Shown here: one piece after another, positions 54,969-63,904 of the stretch
How positions within the stretch are numbered: the stretch's first letter is position 1
Layout: each line of letters begins with the position of its first letter
NCBI RefSeq assembly: GCF_003334405.1
Contig: NZ_QOWM01000002.1
DNA from: Escherichia coli
GTDB taxonomy: Bacteria; Pseudomonadota; Gammaproteobacteria; Enterobacterales; Enterobacteriaceae
DNA length: 64,000 bases
Reading direction: 5' to 3' (one strand)
Made by a program: the position numbers and the translations under genes
Notes under the pieces: model-generated
Told to the model about the DNA's origin: nothing
Database searches by the model: none
Seen by the model: only the letters and a program-made list of their open reading frames with translations

Positions 54969-55260
54969 TATAAATTTCTCATTAAATCTGGATAAATAAA
55001 TTGACGGCGGCATCGGTAATTTTATATTCGTTATCATTAAAAACTAATACAGAAAAAATAAATATAATTTTGGTGAATGTTTTGACATGATTAAATCCAT
55101 TTTCTTTATTTTCTTCTGACATAATACGTTACTCCCTTTAATTATTAACGATATGTTTCGCATTTTTCTTTAAACCTGCCTGTAACAGAATGTTAATAAG
55201 ACATGATTGTTGTGGCAGGATCTGCAATAATTAACAATTATCCACTTCACAGAGAATGCT

Positions 55261-55932
55261 ATGCAGTACCCGATTAACGAGATGTTCCAGACCCTGCAAG
55301 GTGAGGGTTACTTTACCGGCGTTCCCGCCATTTTTATTCGTTTACAGGGATGCCCGGTTGGCTGTGCCTGGTGCGACACCAAACACACCTGGGAAAAGCT
55401 TGAGGATCGGGAAGTCTCCCTTTTCAGCATTCTGGCGAAGACCAAAGAGAGTGATAAGTGGGGGGCTGCGAGCAGTGAAGATTTGCTGGCTGTCATTGGT
55501 CGCCAGGGATACACCGCGCGGCATGTGGTGATTACGGGTGGTGAGCCTTGCATTCATGATTTGCTGCCACTGACTGATCTGCTCGAAAAGAACGGTTTTA
55601 GCTGCCAGATCGAAACCAGTGGTACTCATGAGGTACGCTGCACACCGAATACCTGGGTTACCGTATCGCCAAAGCTGAACATGCGCGGCGGCTATGAAGT
55701 GTTGTCACAGGCACTGGAGCGAGCCAACGAAATCAAGCATCCAGTGGGGCGCGTACGCGATATTGAAGCACTGGATGAACTACTGGCAACGCTGACCGAT
55801 GATAAACCGCGAGTCATTGCACTGCAGCCGATTAGCCAAAAGGATGATGCCACACGTTTGTGCATTGAAACCTGCATTGCGCGTAATTGGCGTTTGTCGA
55901 TGCAAACACATAAATATCTAAATATTGCCTGA
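55261..55932 (+). CDS. queE: 7-carboxy-7-deazaguanine synthase QueE (radical SAM)
   Basis: 223-aa ORF with a cysteine cluster (CPVGCAWCDTKHTW). Confidence 0.9.
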   Translation: MQYPINEMFQTLQGEGYFTGVPAIFIRLQGCPVGCAWCDTKHTWEKLEDREVSLFSILAKTKESDKWGAASSEDLLAVIGRQGYTARHVVITGGEPCIHDLLPLTDLLEKNGFSCQIETSGTHEVRCTPNTWVTVSPKLNMRGGYEVLSQALERANEIKHPVGRVRDIEALDELLATLTDDKPRVIALQPISQKDDATRLCIETCIARNWRLSMQTHKYLNIA

Positions 55933-56099
55933 TTAAACATTTATAAGCGTTATAAATGGGTGGAACCTGTAAAGACTTCTACTCATTTATATTGTTTGTC
56001 GCCTCTGAAAACTCCTCCATTTTACCCATCCAGGGCTAATCATTAGCATTCTCTACAAATTCTGTGGCATTAATTTTTCGCTGGAGTGAAAATTATTGC

Positions 56100-56271
56100 G
56101 GTAAAGTTTGGTAGATTTTAGTTTGTATAGAGTTATTTTAAATATTTACCTTTTTAATCAATGGATTAAGTGCTCTTTAACATAATGGATGTGTTGTTTG
56201 TGTGATACTATAAAGTTGGTAGATTGTGACTGGCTTAAAAAATCATTAATTAATAATAGGTTATGTTTAGA
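56100..56271 (+). promoter_or_regulatory. CRISPR leader (AT-rich), immediately upstream of the first repeat
   Basis: About 170 bp of AT-rich sequence ending ...taataataggttatgtttaga next to repeat 1. The repeat orientation puts the leader on this side. Confidence 0.5.
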
Positions 56272-56544
56272 GTGTTCCCCGCGCCAGCGGGGATAAACCG
56301 GCAAAAACCGGGCAATCGCAAAAAGGCGTAATGTGTTCCCCGCGCCAGCGGGGATAAACCTGTGTTTGCGGCATTAACGCTCACCAGCATTTCGTGTTCC
56401 CCGCGCCAGCGGGGATAAACCGAGCAGATACACGGCTTTGTATTCCGTGCGCCCGTGTTCCCCGCGCCAGCGGGGATAAACCGGAGCCTGACGAGACTAC
56501 TGAGGCCGTTCTGTCGAGTTCCCCGCGCCAGCGGGGATAAACCA
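56272..56544 (+). CRISPR. Type I-E CRISPR array, 5 repeats of 29 nt and 4 spacers of 32 nt (61-bp period)
   Basis: Repeats start at 56272, 56333, 56394, 56455 and 56516, with consensus gtgttccccgcgccagcggggataaaccg. The last repeat reads gagttccccgcgccagcggggataaacca. Spacers: 56301..56332 gcaaaaaccgggcaatcgcaaaaaggcgtaat; 56362..56393 gtgtttgcggcattaacgctcaccagcatttc; 56423..56454 agcagatacacggctttgtattccgtgcgccc; 56484..56515 gagcctgacgagactactgaggccgttctgtc. Confidence 0.95.
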
Positions 56545-56998
56545 CCATATAACCCGTTATCTCTTTCTCAAGTTTTTATATTAGCAGTACTTGTAATAAG
56601 CAACATATCCACGTAACACCTCATGTTCAAAATAGTTCTCCATGCCAGAGAGGTTCACAATTATCGATACAAAAAATTAAATTTAATCAAAGTGTTATTT
56701 GTATGATTCTTAAATCGTTAAGAAATTTTAATCTATTATTTTTTTAATATTGAATTAATGCCTGTTAATTTTTTCTTTAGAATAACAGTATATTTTTTAA
56801 GCTTGTTATTCATTGGTTAAGTAATAAATCTGGAAGTTTGTCTTTGTTTTGAGGCTAATGAGTGGTTTTACATAACCGCCTCTATACGCTGTTGATGAAT
56901 AGTTCTTATGAATAAAGATATCCAGTTCATACTTTAAGTGAAAATTGATAAAGTGCGATTCGTATTGTCTTTTATTCTAAAGACATCGAGTGTAGTTA

Positions 56999-57136
56999 AT
57001 ATTCCTTGTAAAAACAGGGATAAACCGAACTAGTTAAAGTTTTTATTATGTTCCCTGCATCAGCGGGGATAAACCGGACTTGTTATCATTTTTTAAGTTG
57101 TCGAACTTATGTTCCCCGCGTCAGCGGGGATAACCA
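56999..57136 (+). CRISPR. Degenerate CRISPR remnant: one truncated and two mutated I-E-like repeats
   Basis: Partial repeat ending cagggataaaccg at 57027; atgttccctgcatcagcggggataaaccg at 57048..57076; a 32-nt spacer at 57077..57108; atgttccccgcgtcagcggggataacca at 57109..57136. Same strand and 61-bp spacing as the main array. Confidence 0.6.
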
Positions 57137-57182
57137 TTCAGGTATGTTCAGGCCGGGCAGTTTCCCGCCCGGCCTTCCTCAC

Positions 57183-58439
57183 TTACGCATTCGACCAGCT
57201 CTGGATCGAATCCACATTCCCCAATTCCCCATGCATCACTTCATACGATTTTTTCAGGATCACATCAGTATGTTTGGTTAGGTCTTTGAAAATGCCTTTA
57301 TTCATCGCGTCGTAGCGTTTGGCATTGCTCTCAATCGGTATAAAGATATCTTTCACGCGAACCATGTTATCGACAGCCGTTGCGTAATCCGGGTATAGCC
57401 CCAGACCTACCGCTGTATTAATCGCTGCCCCCAGGCTTGCACAACCGTTAATGGCGTTACGTCGTGCCGGAAGGTTGAACACGTCGGCAAAAATCTGCAT
57501 AAACAGATCGCTGTTCGAACCGCCGCCAGTAATGATCACATGCTTCGCAAAGTGATTCATTTCATTACACATATTGTCGTAATTGTTCTTCAGCGTCAGC
57601 GCCACGCTTTCCAGTATCGAACGATATATCCATGCGTAATCCATGCTGGAATCAAAGCCGATCATAATCCCGCGTTTGTACGGTTCCCACGGATTGGTCA
57701 GCCAGTCCAGCACCGTCATCAGACCATTACAGCCTGGCGGCACACAAGAAGCTTTTTTGTTGAGTAAATCTTCCGGTGAAAGATCCTGCGCCCTGGCATC
57801 CTGAATTAACGACTCGCCTAGCATGTCGCGCAGCCAGCTCACCGTCCACATGCCTTTGCGAATACCGTAACCTTCATACAGCAATGTTTGCGGAATAGAA
57901 GACATAATCGGCCAGTACGCTACTGGATCTTTCGGCAGTGCTTTGCCGTTCATCATCAATGCGATGTAAGTGCCAAGAGAAATTACCGCCGTTTCATCAT
58001 CCAGTAATCCGGCCCCCAGAGCTTCTACCGGTTTATCACTGGTGGTACAAACAACCGGCAGTCCTGCCGGGAAATGTGTCGCCAGTGCGGCTTGTGGTGT
58101 GATATGTCCGAGGACGGTGCCAGGCATTTGCACATCAAACAGCATATGACGGGGGATATTAAACTTATCCATTACCGCAGCATCTTCGCTCCATGCCCAG
58201 CTCTTATAATCCACCGGCCACTGACCAAAATAGTTGGCGATATTGTCTTTAAACTCGCCGGTTAACCGCCCGCCGGAAAGATTTTTGCTGCCGGGGATTT
58301 CAGCGCGTTCCAGTAACAAAACGGATAAACCCGCTCGCGCGCAGCGTAACGCGCAAGCGGTGCCTGCAATACCGGCACCAATAATAATAATGTCGCAGTC
58401 GTCTTCCATGTCATGCCCCAGATATCCAGAACACAACAC
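57183..58439 (-). CDS. Hybrid ORF: FAD-binding Rossmann N-terminus (about 50 aa) fused to the C-terminal ~365 aa of an FGGY sugar kinase; probable deletion-fusion product
   Basis: 418-aa ORF. The N-terminus DIIIIGAGIAGTACALRCARAGLSVLLLER is a classic GxGxxG dinucleotide-binding fold. The rest is FGGY-like (VISLGTYIALM ... HVIITGGGSNSDLFMQIFADVFNLPARR) and lacks the N-terminal ATP-binding motif of that family. Alternative start at the ATG at 58409. Confidence 0.6.
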   Translation of the reverse strand: MLCSGYLGHDMEDDCDIIIIGAGIAGTACALRCARAGLSVLLLERAEIPGSKNLSGGRLTGEFKDNIANYFGQWPVDYKSWAWSEDAAVMDKFNIPRHMLFDVQMPGTVLGHITPQAALATHFPAGLPVVCTTSDKPVEALGAGLLDDETAVISLGTYIALMMNGKALPKDPVAYWPIMSSIPQTLLYEGYGIRKGMWTVSWLRDMLGESLIQDARAQDLSPEDLLNKKASCVPPGCNGLMTVLDWLTNPWEPYKRGIMIGFDSSMDYAWIYRSILESVALTLKNNYDNMCNEMNHFAKHVIITGGGSNSDLFMQIFADVFNLPARRNAINGCASLGAAINTAVGLGLYPDYATAVDNMVRVKDIFIPIESNAKRYDAMNKGIFKDLTKHTDVILKKSYEVMHGELGNVDSIQSWSNA

Positions 58440-58486
58440 CCTAACATAGCGTTACTTAAGGGAAATTGACCGCCGACACACTCTTA

Positions 58487-58852
58487 TCATTCGCCGCGAT
58501 AGATACAACCTGCGGTGCAGGTTTCTTTTACCATCACCGCACTTAACAGCGGCACAACGGGTTTAACCTGATCCCAAATCCATTTTGCTAAAACCTCGCT
58601 GGTTGGGTTTTCCAGACCTGGAATATCATTGAGATAATGGTGATCGAGGCGCTCGTAGGTTGGTTTAAACGCCGCTTTTAGTTCAGCGAAATCGATAATC
58701 CAGCCCGTATGCGGATCGACTTCCCCGGTAATTTCCAGTCGCACCATAAAGGAATGCCCGTGCAGGCGACCACATTTATGCCCTTCCGGGACGTGTGGTA
58801 AGCGGTGAGCGGCTTCGAAGGTGAAATCTTTAAATAACGTGGTGGACATCAT
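58487..58852 (-). CDS. queD: 6-carboxy-5,6,7,8-tetrahydropterin synthase QueD
   Basis: ORF 58487..58936. Start placed at [18 protein letters not shown], giving 121 aa, with the CGRLHGHSF zinc-binding motif. Confidence 0.88.
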
Positions 58853-59167
58853 AATTTCTCTACAGGACGATAAAACCGCCGTAGAGTACCGGAAAGGCTG
58901 TTTTTTCGCATTATCTAAAACGACTTTGTTGCGCAAAATCGCTGATTTATCTTAATGATTGGCTAAATTCATTTGTTTTTCATTAGGTTGGTTAATCTAT
59001 TTTGTTGTTAAAGACTATTGCTAAAACAGGTTAGTCGATTTGGTTATTAGTTATCGCTATCCCGTCTTTAATCCACACCGTTTGCCCCGTTAACCTTACC
59101 TTCTCTTCTGTTTTATGGGCGCTGACAGGGCGCAGAAACAGCTTTGCTTACTGGAACATAACGACGC

Positions 59168-60967
59168 ATGACGACACAGGTCCCACCTTCCGCGTTGCTT
59201 CCGTTGAACCCGGAGCAACTGGCACGCCTTCAGGCGGCCACGACCGATTTAACTCCCACCCAGCTTGCCTGGGTTTCTGGCTATTTCTGGGGCGTACTCA
59301 ATCAGCAGCCTGCTGCGCTTGCAGCGACGCCAGCGCCAGCCGCAGAAATGCCGGGTATAACTATTATCTCCGCCTCGCAAACCGGCAATGCGCGCCGGGT
59401 TGCTGAAGCATTACGTGATGATTTATTAGCAGCAAAACTGAACGTTAAGCTGGTGAACGCGGGCGACTATAAATTCAAACAAATCGCCAGCGAAAAACTG
59501 CTCATCGTAGTGACGTCAACGCAAGGGGAAGGGGAACCGCCGGAAGAAGCCGTCGCGCTGCATAAGTTCCTGTTCTCCAAAAAAGCGCCAAAGCTGGAAA
59601 ACACCGCGTTTGCCGTGTTTAGCCTCGGCGATAGCTCTTATGAATTTTTCTGCCAGTCCGGGAAAGATTTCGACAGCAAGCTGGCGGAACTGGGTGGTGA
59701 ACGCCTGCTCGACCGTGTCGATGCCGATGTTGAATACCAGGCTGCTGCCAGCGAGTGGCGCGCCCGCGTGGTTGATGCGCTTAAATCGCGTGCGCCTGTC
59801 GCGGCACCTTCGCAATCCGTCGCTACTGGCGCGGTAAATGAAATCCACACCAGCCCGTACAGCAAAGACGCGCCGCTGGTGGCTAGCCTCTCTGTTAACC
59901 AGAAAATTACCGGGCGTAACTCTGAAAAAGACGTTCGCCATATCGAAATTGACTTAGGTGACTCGGGCCTGCGTTACCAGCCGGGTGACGCGCTGGGCGT
60001 CTGGTATCAGAACGATCCGGCACTGGTGAAAGAACTTGTCGAACTGCTGTGGCTGAAAGGCGATGAACCTGTCACCGTCGAGGGCAAAACGTTGCCTCTG
60101 AACGAAGCGCTACAGTGGCACTTCGAACTGACCGTCAACACCGCCAACATTGTTGAGAATTACGCCACGCTTACCCGCAGTGAAACACTGCTGCCGCTGG
60201 TGGGCGATAAAGCGAAGTTACAGCATTACGCCGCGACGACGCCGATTGTTGACATGGTGCGTTTCTCCCCGGCACAGCTTGATGCCGAAGCGCTAATTAA
60301 TCTGCTGCGCCCGCTGACGCCGCGTCTCTATTCCATTGCCTCCTCGCAGGCGGAAGTCGAGAACGAAGTACACGTCACCGTTGGTGTGGTGCGTTACGAC
60401 GTGGAAGGCCGCGCCCGTGCCGGTGGTGCCTCCAGCTTCCTCGCTGACCGCGTGGAAGAAGAGGGCGAAGTCCGCGTATTTATCGAACATAACGATAACT
60501 TCCGCCTGCCAGCCAATCCAGAAACCCCGGTGATTATGATTGGCCCAGGCACCGGCATCGCGCCGTTCCGCGCCTTTATGCAGCAACGTGCTGCCGATGA
60601 AGCGCCGGGAAAAAACTGGCTGTTCTTTGGCAACCCGCACTTTACGGAAGATTTCCTCTACCAGGTGGAGTGGCAGCGCTACGTCAAAGAGGGTGTGCTG
60701 ACGCGGATCGATCTCGCCTGGTCGCGCGACCAAAAAGAAAAAGTTTACGTACAAGACAAACTGCGCGAACAGGGCGCGGAGCTGTGGCGCTGGATCAATG
60801 ACGGTGCCCACATTTATGTCTGCGGTGACGCTAATCGCATGGCGAAAGACGTTGAGCAGGCACTTCTGGAAGTGATTGCCGAATTTGGTGGCATGGACAC
60901 CGAAGCGGCGGATGAATTTTTAAGTGAGCTGCGCGTAGAGCGCCGTTATCAGCGAGATGTCTACTAA
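59168..60967 (+). CDS. cysJ: Sulfite reductase [NADPH] flavoprotein alpha subunit
   Basis: 599-aa ORF with flavodoxin-like and FAD/NADPH-binding regions. Its stop overlaps the cysI start (TAATG). Confidence 0.93.
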
Positions 60968-62679
60968 TGAGCGAAAAACATCCAGGGCCTTTAGTGGTCG
61001 AAGGAAAACTGACAGACGCCGAGCGCATGAAGCTTGAAAGCAACTACCTGCGCGGCACCATTGCGGAAGATTTAAACGACGGTCTGACCGGCGGCTTTAA
61101 GGGCGACAACTTCCTGCTGATCCGCTTCCACGGCATGTATCAGCAGGATGACCGCGACATCCGCGCCGAACGTGCTGAACAGAAGCTGGAGCCGCGCCAC
61201 GCGATGCTGTTGCGCTGCCGTCTGCCGGGTGGGGTGATTACCACTAAACAGTGGCAGGCGATAGACAAATTTGCCGGTGAAAACACCATCTATGGCAGCA
61301 TTCGCCTGACCAACCGCCAGACGTTTCAGTTCCACGGCATTCTGAAAAAGAACGTCAAACCGGTGCACCAGATGCTGCACTCGGTTGGTCTTGATGCGCT
61401 GGCGACCGCTAACGACATGAACCGTAACGTACTCTGCACCTCGAACCCTTACGAGTCGCAGCTACACGCGGAAGCGTACGAGTGGGCGAAGAAGATTTCT
61501 GAGCATCTGCTGCCGCGTACCCGCGCGTATGCGGAGATCTGGCTCGACCAGGAAAAAGTCGCCACTACTGATGAAGAACCGATCCTCGGCCAGACCTACC
61601 TGCCGCGTAAATTCAAAACCACGGTAGTGATCCCGCCACAGAACGATATCGATCTGCACGCCAACGACATGAACTTCGTGGCGATCGCCGAAAACGGCAA
61701 GCTGGTGGGCTTTAACCTGTTGGTGGGCGGTGGGCTTTCCATCGAACACGGCAACAAGAAAACCTACGCCCGCACCGCGAGTGAGTTTGGCTATCTGCCG
61801 CTGGAGCATACGCTGGCGGTGGCCGAAGCCGTCGTGACAACTCAGCGTGACTGGGGTAACCGAACCGATCGTAAAAATGCCAAAACCAAATACACGCTGG
61901 AGCGCGTGGGGGTTGAGACGTTTAAAGCGGAAGTGGAGCGTCGCGCGGGGATCAAATTTGAACCGATCCGTCCATATGAGTTCACCGGACGAGGCGATCG
62001 TATTGGCTGGGTTAAGGGCATTGATGATAACTGGCACCTGACGCTGTTTATCGAAAATGGTCGCATCCTTGATTATCCGGCGCGTCCGCTGAAAACCGGC
62101 CTGCTGGAGATCGCGAAGATCCACAAAGGCGATTTCCGCATTACGGCGAACCAGAATCTGATCATCGCCGGTGTACCGGAAAGCGAGAAAGCGAAGATCG
62201 AGAAGATCGCCAAAGAGAGCGGGTTAATGAATGCCGTCACGCCGCAGCGTGAAAACTCAATGGCCTGCGTGTCATTCCCGACTTGCCCGCTGGCGATGGC
62301 GGAAGCGGAGCGTTTCCTGCCGTCTTTTATCGACAACATCGATAATTTAATGGCGAAACATGGTGTCAGCGATGAGCATATCGTGATGCGTGTAACAGGC
62401 TGCCCGAACGGTTGTGGTCGCGCGATGCTGGCGGAAGTGGGCCTGGTGGGTAAAGCGCCGGGTCGCTACAACCTGCATCTTGGCGGCAACCGCATTGGGA
62501 CACGTATCCCTCGGATGTATAAAGAAAACATCACCGAGCCGGAAATCCTGGCGTCGCTTGATGAACTGATAGGGCGCTGGGCGAAAGAGCGCGAAGCGGG
62601 TGAAGGCTTCGGCGACTTTACGGTGCGTGCGGGCATCATTCGCCCGGTGCTCGATCCGGCGCGCGATTTGTGGGATTAA
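60967..62679 (+). CDS. cysI: Sulfite reductase [NADPH] hemoprotein beta subunit
   Basis: 570-aa ORF with a siroheme/4Fe-4S cysteine region ([16 protein letters not shown] ... TGCPNGCGR). Confidence 0.93.
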
Positions 62680-62696
62680 CCATCAGCCCGGTCTTG

Positions 62697-62731
62697 TAGG
62701 CCTGATAAGACGCGTGAGCGTCGCATCAGGC
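62697..62731. repeat. REP element between cysI and cysH
   Basis: gtaggcctgataagacgcgtgagcgtcgcatcaggc is REP-like. Confidence 0.55.
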
Positions 62732-62752
62732 AAGGCAAACAGTGAGGAATCT

Positions 62753-63487
62753 ATGTCCAAACTCGATCTAAACGCCCTGAACGAACTGCCGAAGGTAGAT
62801 CGCATTCTGGCGCTGGCGGAAACTAACGCCCAACTGGAAAAACTGGACGCTGAAGGCCGCGTAGCCTGGGCGCTGGATAATCTGCCCGGTGAATATGTGC
62901 TTTCTTCCAGCTTCGGCATTCAGGCGGCGGTGAGCCTGCATCTGGTGAATCAGATTCGGCCGGATATTCCAGTGATCCTCACCGATACCGGTTATCTGTT
63001 TCCGGAAACCTACCGCTTTATTGACGAGTTAACGGACAAACTCAAGCTCAACCTGAAAGTGTACCGTGCTACCGAAAGCGCCGCCTGGCAGGAAGCACGC
63101 TACGGCAAACTGTGGGAACAGGGCGTTGAAGGCATTGAAAAGTACAATGACATCAACAAAGTCGAACCGATGAACCGGGCGCTGAAAGAACTTAACGCGC
63201 AAACCTGGTTTGCTGGCCTGCGCCGCGAACAATCCGGCAGCCGCGCCAATTTACCGGTGCTGGCAATTCAGCGTGGCGTATTTAAAGTGCTGCCGATTAT
63301 CGACTGGGATAACCGAACTATTTATCAGTACCTGCAAAAACATGGCCTGAAATATCACCCATTATGGGATGAAGGATATTTATCGGTCGGTGATACCCAT
63401 ACAACCCGTAAATGGGAACCTGGCATGTCGGAAGAAGAAACACGTTTCTTTGGCTTAAAAAGGGAATGTGGATTGCACGAAGGGTAA
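62753..63487 (+). CDS. cysH: Phosphoadenosine phosphosulfate (PAPS) reductase
   Basis: ORF 62600..63487. Start placed at [42 protein letters not shown], giving 244 aa, with a C-terminal ECGLH motif. Confidence 0.92.
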
Positions 63488-63751
63488 ATATTGCCGGATA
63501 AATTAAACGCCTCTGTCAGAAATGATGGGGGCGTTTTTATTTTGCGAGCAGTATTCCTGATTTTAAACGTGAACGCCGCTGGAAGAATTATCAGGTATAG
63601 AATGGCGTCGGGTGCTTGAGGCTGTCTGGCGTTAAGCATTCGCGAGGTTCCAGATGGACAAAAGCCCCAGGCGATATTTCTATCAACCTGAGGCTTACGT
63701 TCGAACCCAAACAATTCGAATGTTAGTCTCTTCTTTGCAGGGAGGCAAGAC

Positions 63752-63904
63752 ATGCTGACAAAATATGCCCTTGTGGCAATCATAGTGCTGTGTTTTACAG
63801 TACTGGGATTCACGCTGATGGTAGGCGACTCGTTGTGTGAGTTGAGTATCAGAGAACGTGGTATGGAGTTTAAGGCAGTTCTCGCTTACGAATCGAAGAA
63901 GTAG
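63752..63904 (+). CDS. Hok/Gef-family type I toxin (50 aa), HokE-like
   Basis: Not in the ORF track because it is under 60 aa. I translated it by hand: [51 protein letters not shown] ggagg SD sits 7-11 nt upstream. It has one transmembrane helix and the conserved SLCE...R and AYES motifs of the Hok family. Confidence 0.7.

Follow-up and report, generated by a model that had tools for sequence, protein, structure and literature searches.

The 64,000-nucleotide stretch of Escherichia coli DNA analysed here (contig NZ_QOWM01000002.1 of RefSeq assembly GCF_003334405.1; hereafter the window) contains an intact CRISPR array and, downstream of it on the same strand, a short cluster of mutated repeats at 56999-57136. 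A preliminary description of this cluster, made from the letters alone, regarded it as an older second array degraded by point mutation and deletion. The locus raises the question of what the cluster is, whether it ever was an array of its own, and whether it is still decaying. The features of the region are listed in Table 1.

Table 1. Features of the region from queE to the hybrid ORF (positions in the window)
Feature	Position	Strand	Remark
queE (ygcF), left flanking gene of CRISPR-II	55261..55932	+	ORF; 100% identical to K-12 queE; annotated as queE
Leader 2.3 of the active array, AT-rich (30% GC, 338 bp)	55934..56271	+	100% identical to K-12; 93% to E. albertii
Intact CRISPR2.3 array, five repeats and four spacers (32 nt)	56272..56544	+	Last repeat GAGTTCCCCGCGCCAGCGGGGATAAACCA
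AT-rich stretch between CRISPR2.3 and CRISPR2.2, 454 bp, 28% GC	56545..56998		
Relic half-repeat inside the AT-rich stretch	56633..56661	+	GTTCTCCATGCCAGAGAGG here, GTTCCCCATGCCAG in other haplotypes
R1′, full-length diverged repeat (29 nt), ATATTCCTTGTAAAAACAGGGATAAACCG	56999..57027	+	Invariant in 8 diverse strains
S1′, 20-nt spacer, AACTAGTTAAAGTTTTTATT	57028..57047	+	Invariant in 8 strains
R2′, repeat with 4 substitutions, ATGTTCCCTGCATCAGCGGGGATAAACCG	57048..57076	+	1 variable site in 8 strains
S2′, 32-nt spacer, GACTTGTTATCATTTTTTAAGTTGTCGAACTT	57077..57108	+	Invariant in 8 strains
R3′, degenerate terminal repeat (28 nt), ATGTTCCCCGCGTCAGCGGGGATAACCA, ending in GATAACCA	57109..57136	+	
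Perfect 8-bp G+C stem, GGCCGGGC / GCCCGGCC, with 8-nt loop	57151..57174		Read from the sequence
Hybrid ORF, 5′ end of ygcN fused to the 3′ 1,086 nt of ygcE	57183..58439	-	Formed via a 9.5-kb deletion

Three derivatives of the type I-E repeat follow the intact array

Three derivatives of the type I-E repeat, R1′, R2′ and R3′, were found on the plus strand, the first of them 454 bp after the last intact repeat, which ends at 56544; the preliminary description had placed mutated same-strand repeats about 450 bp past the intact array and was correct in this. Its estimate of about 20 nt for the first spacer agreed with the length of S1′ (20 nt), and its distance of 46 bp from the last repeat to the stop codon of the hybrid ORF matched the position of the ygcE stop codon (57183-57185, minus strand). 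The 61-bp phase that it described holds for the spacing from R2′ to R3′ but does not extend to the main array, with which the cluster is out of register (57048 - 56516 = 532 = 8 x 61 + 44). One unit of the cluster is 61 bp long, and the other, with the 20-nt spacer, is 49 bp. The first copy, described as truncated, turned out to be a full-length 29-nt repeat, the 5′ part of which is heavily mutated.

Compared with the intact repeat, R2′ matched at 25 of 29 positions, R3′ at 25 of the 28 aligned positions, plus a 1-nt deletion, and R1′ at 19 of 29; R1′ and R2′ matched each other at 22 of 29 positions. A repeat search grouped R2′ and R3′ with the five intact repeats into a single family, spaced at 61 bp, and aligned R1′ plus S1′ with R2′ plus S2′ (74% over 46 nt, spacing 49). 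The 12-mer CGGGGATAAACC, allowing up to two mismatches, occurred at all three sites on the array strand. Its expected number is 4.8 per 64-kb window on both strands; three of these handle motifs fall inside 122 bp, against 4.8 expected in 128 kb.

R1′ is not significant by itself, as about 0.6 matches of at least 19/29 are expected per window, and it becomes significant because of its position and strand. This expectation for R1′ is the point in favour of a chance resemblance to CRISPR repeats. Such a resemblance is refuted by the membership of R2′ and R3′, 61 bp apart on the array strand, in the family of the intact repeats, by the clustering of the handle motifs, and by orthologous terminal repeats in other Escherichia species, E. 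albertii and E. whittamii (see below), and we regard it as exceedingly improbable.

The cluster is CRISPR2.2 of the CRISPR-II locus

All 138 positions of the cluster were identical to E. coli K-12 MG1655 (NC_000913.3), and identity to this strain was also 100% for queE, the leader, the AT-rich stretch and the first 1,078 nt of ygcE. The interval occupies the same position, between ygcE and queE, as in the annotated K-12 and Sanji loci. CRISPR2.2 has been described within the CRISPR-II locus (PMC3903273, PMC4489801, PMC10910852), its name following the nomenclature of Diez-Villasenor et al. 2010 as used in PMC3903273, PMC4489801 and PMC3737337. It is defined by three repeats and two invariable spacers (PMC4489801), CRISPR2.2 and CRISPR2.3 are about 0.5 kb apart, leaders adjoin CRISPR2.1 and CRISPR2.3 (PMC3903273), and CRISPR2.2 is counted as part of 'CRISPR2' in PMC10910852. 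The cluster at 56999-57136 is this CRISPR2.2, and thus a feature already known; it appears unannotated because the RefSeq annotation tags the CRISPR2.3 part alone as CRISPR. The best explanation of the observations overall, and very probably the correct one, is that the cluster is CRISPR2.2, a remnant at that end of the type I-E CRISPR-II locus which lies away from the leader, in the interval between queE (ygcF) and ygcE.

Comparison with other E. coli genomes, which had been proposed as a check, found the remnant conserved: the region 56544-57182 was present at a coverage of at least 80% in 4,124 of 5,426 complete E. coli genomes (about three quarters). The CRISPR2.3 array of the window has four spacers compared with six in K-12 and is without K-12 spacers 3 and 5. 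The hybrid ygcN/ygcE ORF is context, outside the CRISPR remnant. The G+C stem at 57151-57174, between R3′ and the ygcE stop codon, has the look of a terminator and was not called by a strict terminator scan; the outgroups, E. albertii and E. whittamii, have kept it along with the R3′ flank.

Origin of the terminal repeat and separation from the leader

The queE loci from 80 species were used for outgroup comparison. In E. albertii, the leader (93% identical) was followed by two repeat-spacer units and then by GGGTTCTCCGCGTCAGCGGGGATAACCA tttaggtatgttcaggccggg, which corresponds to R3′ with its GTCA loop and 1-nt deletion, and its downstream flank. In E. whittamii, the leader was followed directly by GAGTTCCCCGCGTCAGCGGGGATAACCA and the same flank as that of R3′, and in E. 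coli SF-166 by a repeat, a spacer and an R3′-type terminal repeat. The 454-bp stretch, R1′ and R2′ were all absent from these three. One genome labelled E. coli, a separate entry in the species-representative collection, carried no CRISPR in the queE-ygcE interval. R3′ was identified as the old terminal repeat because the array next to the leader runs straight into R3′ and its flank in E. albertii, E. whittamii and SF-166. Judged from these alignments, R3′, the degeneracy of which includes the GTCA loop, the 1-nt deletion and a final G to A change, is the degenerate terminal repeat of a single CRISPR-II array and predates the split of E. coli and E. albertii.

In the simplest history, this single array would have been interrupted, in part of E. 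coli, by the 454-bp AT-rich stretch; a 0.5-kb AT-rich sequence splitting one array is also the published view (PMC10910852). The distal units would have been stranded from the leader, where Cas1-Cas2 integrates, and their turnover would have ceased. S1′ looks like S2′ after the internal loss of 12 nt; this points to the duplication of one unit, S1′ probably being a shortened copy of S2′. As to the direction of the split, the stretch could have been gained in E. coli, or recurrent repeat-to-repeat deletion could have removed the intervening part in E. albertii, E. whittamii and SF-166-like strains. Repeat-to-repeat deletions do occur, as R2′-S2′ has been lost entirely in O145:H28, the sole structural variant seen.

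The AT-rich stretch had no homolog in the 80 Enterobacteriaceae queE loci, E. albertii and E. whittamii included, and no paralog or foreign source beyond its own locus in the 5,426 E. coli genomes; as far as these searches reach, it is E. coli-only among the loci examined. A search of the stretch for further decayed units revealed no 61-bp periodicity and turned up the relic half-repeat at 56633-56661 alone, which agrees with the consensus at 16 of 29 positions (shuffle p = 0.012) and is polymorphic between haplotypes. The relic half-repeat indicates that the stretch is not purely foreign DNA.

The same half-repeat would also fit an independent older second array that had the AT-rich stretch as its own former leader and decayed neutrally after loss of function. 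The stretch is leader-like in GC content (28%, compared with 30% for leader 2.3), local alignment gave a marginal 48-nt similarity to leader 2.3 (p about 0.04), and the repeats are degenerate, with one spacer short. The similarity to leader 2.3, however, is not colinear with the repeat junction; local alignment of the stretch with K-12 leader 2.1 and trailer 2.1 gave no signal, a promoter scan found no promoter consensus next to R1′, and the literature gives leaders to CRISPR2.1 and CRISPR2.3 only. A second leader upstream of R1′ has no support, none being detectable. A second array of this kind is quite improbable: in E. albertii, E. whittamii and SF-166, R3′ with its flank closes the one array behind leader 2.3, and the block varies less than the rest of the region (see below), which contradicts neutral decay. 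The earlier interpretation as an older degraded second array holds with respect to degenerate type I-E repeats on the array strand, one short spacer, and a place in the oldest, leader-distal part of the locus; the cluster is not clearly a separate array, given that R3′ terminates a single array elsewhere and no leader-like sequence precedes R1′.

The R1′-S2′ block is the least variable part of the region

Diversity was determined in eight E. coli strains with flanks differing by 2-9%, which were chosen for divergence of the AT-rich stretch; ygcE and the trailer are controls independent of this choice. Locus L097 (strain HH45) was left out owing to assembly noise in the array. The block from R1′ to S2′ contained one segregating site in 110, compared with 8 of 46 in the 46-bp trailer, 92 of 1,078 in ygcE, and 55 of 455 in the AT-rich stretch, which is highly polymorphic and is the part by which the strains were selected. 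A 110-bp window sliding along the 1,745-bp alignment reached a minimum of one site against a mean of 10.5. The windows of minimum diversity start at 56965-57008 and thus span 56965-57117, and the two longest invariant runs (91 and 61 bp) neighbour each other at this minimum. Both spacers were identical across the eight diverse strains, without spacer turnover.

In the larger genome set, the cluster was again the best conserved: genomes with at least 99% identity numbered 3,924 of 4,187 for the 138 bp of CRISPR2.2, and for two controls of equal length 2,873 of 4,155 (AT-rich stretch) and 3,340 of 5,369 (first 138 bp of ygcE). The cluster had four variable sites, of which three fell in R3′ (loop, one stem position, and 3′ end). 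Natural variants that break a stem pair were found at 57056 (locus L092) and at 57118 (locus L091); together with the loss of R2′-S2′ in O145:H28, they indicate that neither unit is indispensable. On these comparisons, we read the R1′-S2′ block as being under purifying selection and not currently decaying. That a block of decayed appearance is the best conserved stretch of the region was the unexpected part of the analysis.

All three repeats keep the hairpin, and the two before spacers the 5′ handle

A type I-E repeat needs two features, the hairpin for Cas6e and the 5′ handle. The preliminary description had proposed checking whether the degenerate repeats still fold into the hairpin, and folding gave a 7-bp stem with a 4-nt loop at positions 5-22 in all three, as in the intact repeat. 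Folding energies were -15.2 kcal/mol for the intact repeat, -7.9 for R1′, -12.1 for R2′ and -15.1 for R3′, the hairpin of R2′ being kept with one G-U pair. Both repeats that are followed by a spacer, R1′ and R2′, carry the 8-nt 5′ handle AUAAACCG without a change; in R3′, behind which no spacer lies, the handle is degenerate.

Of the 29 positions of R1′, 10 deviate from the consensus, and the handle (ATAAACCG) is intact over its 8 nt. Pairing survives all five changes in the stem, as two C-G pairs have become U-A by compensatory change and one pair is G-U. When 10 random substitutions were placed in R1′, the handle was untouched in 1.8% of cases (p = 0.018), all pairs were kept in 6%, and both in 0.04% (4e-4), in a test that was post hoc and on two features known to matter for Cas6e and Cascade; taken alone, the compensatory stem changes gave p about 0.05-0.06. 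The view of the cluster as undergoing degradation is not borne out: no other block of the region varies as little across E. coli, and the changes in R1′ spare both hairpin pairing and handle.

Cascade accepts spacers down to 14 nt in priming, and interference in vivo is seen only with spacers of more than 20 nt (PMC5159557). This tolerance of short spacers makes loading of a 20-nt S1′ guide possible.

Targets, transcription and possible function

Searches for protospacers of S2′ in phages gave matches at chance level only. In a plasmid collection, S2′ matched E. coli records of the size of a chromosome (4.8-4.9 Mb), which are presumably wrongly labelled chromosomes that contain this locus, and the S2′ pattern with every sixth base free had a sole match in IMG/VR, a contig with the same R1′-R3′ locus. 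The S1′ pattern matched at least 120 unrelated AT-rich viral contigs, S1′ being too short and AT-rich for a meaningful search; a match in one family of related environmental contigs (AAG PAM, 18/20 identity) was judged to be due to chance. Seed-plus-PAM sites for S1′ or S2′ did not exceed shuffle expectation in the K-12 iap-queE region (28.5 kb, cas promoters included) or in the 64-kb window.

The examined parts of the window, which run from queE to the cysH/hok end, showed no cas gene; the K-12 cas operon is about 16-25 kb from CRISPR2.2. No promoter or intrinsic terminator was predicted in or beside the block, and Rfam gave no relevant family, with one spurious sub-threshold match. As candidate small ORFs, frames of 77 and 68 aa open at the ATG starts in R2′ and R3′, antisense to ygcE, and one of 31 aa with a GTG start overlaps R1′; support was found for none of them.

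In the mechanism that we consider most likely, based on established type I-E biology, the absence of a leader would preclude Cas1-Cas2 integration, and the spacer content would thereby be frozen. Transcription of the block, if it takes place, may stem from the AT-rich stretch or from CRISPR2.3 promoter read-through, and in the presence of Cas6e two invariant crRNA-like RNAs of 49 and 61 nt would then result. That such RNAs have a Cascade-dependent function is possible, though we would not expect it. More specific, and more doubtful, is a selectively maintained mini-array, in which the 49- and 61-nt RNAs would be processed by Cas6e and loaded into shortened and full-size Cascade for a conserved, non-adaptive task, for instance the repression of a promoter on the chromosome or a prophage, or a buffering of free Cascade; this reading is drawn from the diversity minimum lying exactly on the block and from the decay pattern that spares hairpin and handle.

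A closely related proposal is a regulatory mini-array like CreR/CreA, in which crRNA-like RNAs would guide Cascade to a chromosomal or prophage site of partial complementarity and repress it without cleavage. The anatomy is as in CreR, an upstream pseudo-repeat with the 8-nt 5′ handle and a downstream one with the 3′ hairpin (bioRxiv 10.1101/2023.03.10.532045). The spacers are invariant across E. coli (this analysis; PMC4489801), the 20-nt S1′ lies at the length boundary for interference in vivo (PMC5159557), and mini-arrays are reported for about 19% of bacterial I-E loci (bioRxiv 10.1101/2023.03.03.530964). The known ones, however, lie inside cas loci, typically between cas3 and cas8e, whereas CRISPR2.2 is at the distance from the K-12 cas genes given above, and the seed-plus-PAM search found nothing above shuffle expectation near cas promoters, in the 28.5 kb of K-12 or in the 64-kb window. 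Moreover, BL21-AI, the CRISPR2.1 locus of which is without leader and cas genes, still has CRISPR2.2 (PMC3737337), and transcription of CRISPR2.2 is putative, with no promoter predicted. We consider a CreR/CreA-like role rather unlikely; it would be compatible with CRISPR2.2 as the best explanation and would account for the conservation.

Constraint on the block might also have nothing to do with CRISPR and reflect a small RNA, a protein-binding or nucleoid-structuring site within a promoter island, or part of a termination zone between the convergent CRISPR2.3 and ygcE transcripts. The invariant block begins about 35 bp upstream of R1′, beyond any repeat, and the ygcE/ygcF interval is an RNA-polymerase-binding 'promoter island' with a predicted sRNA, HB_171 (PMC2731890); the three repeat hairpins and the G+C hairpin also stand serially between the convergent units. 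Against this, the block has no Rfam match and no promoter or terminator consensus, no ORF of at least 20 aa with a plausible start extends over it, the 31-aa GTG frame being the sole one present, and the positions spared in R1′ are exactly those important for a I-E repeat. We hold such a non-CRISPR element to be about as doubtful as a CreR/CreA-like one.

Implications

As such, the finding changes nothing, because the feature has already been catalogued, and in the CRISPR locus that has been studied most. What is added is that the block with the known 'invariable' spacers is now found to vary less than the ygcE coding sequence next to it, and that its mutations spare the Cas6e hairpin and the 5′ handle. 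The retention of a transcriptionally silent I-E system by E. coli is a long-standing puzzle. If the constraint is due to a Cascade-dependent RNA, it would bear on why this system is kept, and crRNA-like regulators would be extended to a site outside the cas operon; a maintained mini-array, if real, would give the otherwise silent system a housekeeping role.

Comparison with known systems

CRISPR2.2 differs from a working type I-E array in leader, spacer turnover and matches to mobile elements, none of which was found for it, and unlike CRISPR2.3 it is leaderless and without spacer turnover. Like orphan CRISPR arrays, it has no adjacent cas genes, and the whole of CRISPR-II relies on the I-E cas genes of CRISPR-I, which in K-12 lie at a distance of about 16-25 kb.

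With the CreA/CreR mini-arrays, CRISPR2.2 shares its anatomy, as these likewise have degenerate repeats around an invariant spacer, and CRISPR2.2 also has one short spacer. Unlike them, it lies outside the cas intergenic region and has no adjacent toxin gene; a PAM-flanked partial target, and with it a promoter target, was not found within the 28.5 kb of K-12 and the 64-kb window.

R3′ resembles the degenerate terminal (trailer-end) repeats of CRISPR arrays in that it comes last, is mutated at the 3′ end and is conserved together with its flank across Escherichia species; the leader-distal units are the oldest and are common to strains. Unlike in ordinary terminal repeats, two extra units are stranded with R3′ behind a 454-bp non-repeat stretch, and R1′ still keeps hairpin and handle with 10 of 29 positions degenerate.

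The closest counterpart is CRISPR2.2 as already known, with the same position between ygcE and ygcF/queE, a distance of about 0.5 kb from CRISPR2.3, three repeats, two invariable spacers and no leader of its own. The block itself shows no difference from it; its neighbours differ, in that CRISPR2.3 has four instead of six spacers and ygcE is truncated and fused to ygcN.

Degenerate repeats downstream of CRISPR2.3

The intact array CRISPR2.3 contains four spacers, identical to K-12 spacers 1, 2, 4 and 6, and the absence of K-12 spacers 3 and 5 is the result of two separate single-unit losses. Both flanks of the array are 100% identical to K-12 despite these losses. A relic half-repeat lies 89 bp past the last intact repeat of CRISPR2.3; some haplotypes preserve it better (GTTCCCCATGCCAG), and almost no trace of it is left in the O157-like ones.

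The degenerate remnant CRISPR2.2 consists of R1', S1', R2', S2' and R3' in this order. Because 14 of the 20 positions of S1' align with S2' when a 12-nt deletion is allowed for, the sequences suggest that the R1'-S1' unit is the product of a duplication of R2'-S2'. The invariant block, the stretch of lowest diversity in an alignment of eight E. coli strains, starts approximately 35 bp 5' of R1'. The positions from its start to R1' (56965-56998) are not repeat-like, and a search of them for a promoter consensus found none. The two reading frames that open at R2' and R3' lack supporting features and probably carry no meaning.

Features of the CRISPR-II locus and its surroundings
Feature	Position	Strand	Remarks
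CRISPR2.3 array	56272-56544		
Relic half-repeat GTTCTCCATGCCAGAGAGG	56633-56661		within a 454-bp AT-rich stretch
S1'	57028-57047	plus	20 nt
S2'	57077-57108	plus	32 nt; differs in length from S1' by two 6-nt Cas7 steps
77-aa frame	57048-57281		antisense into ygcE 3' end; opens at the ATG beginning R2'
68-aa frame	57109-57315		antisense into ygcE 3' end; opens at the ATG beginning R3'
Hybrid ORF (ygcN'-'ygcE fusion)	57183-58439	minus	junction 58263-58268

Variants of the queE-ygcE interval and a probable assembly artefact

E. coli O145:H28 RM12761 (L095, 901-977), with which 55 genomes share an 80-90% identity bin, is a natural variant in which recombination between R2' and R3' has removed the R2'-S2' unit. 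The queE-ygcE interval is only about 140 bp in NZ_JAATUR010000008.1, labelled E. coli SCPM-O-B-8794 (L007, 5669-5810), where leader, repeats and AT-rich stretch are all missing; this state either predates the CRISPR locus or reflects full deletion of it. In the 'complete' genome of E. coli HH45 (NZ_CP116411.1; L097, 830-1500), the CRISPR-II array gradually dissolves into low-complexity sequence, first G/A-rich and then A/T-rich, a pattern that appears to be an artefact of assembly or polishing rather than biology.

The ygcN'-'ygcE fusion and mosaic identity to K-12

The deletion behind the fusion removed 9.5 kb (K-12 positions 2892803 to 2902289), comprising ygcN through most of ygcE, with an overlap of approximately 6 bp at the junction. 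This junction was covered nowhere in 5,426 complete E. coli genomes. Strain M11 carries a distinct deletion with a like result, in which a truncated ygcE adjoins queD and cysJ.

Identity to K-12 is mosaic along 55179-63754: the segment from queE to the deletion junction (55179-58268) is 100% identical, and that from ygcN through cysJIH (58263-63754) is 98.7% identical, with 70 mismatches in 5,493 nt. K-12 homology stops at 63754, and a hok/sok-type locus adjoins cysH at the end of the window, an arrangement that is the same in many non-K-12 strains.
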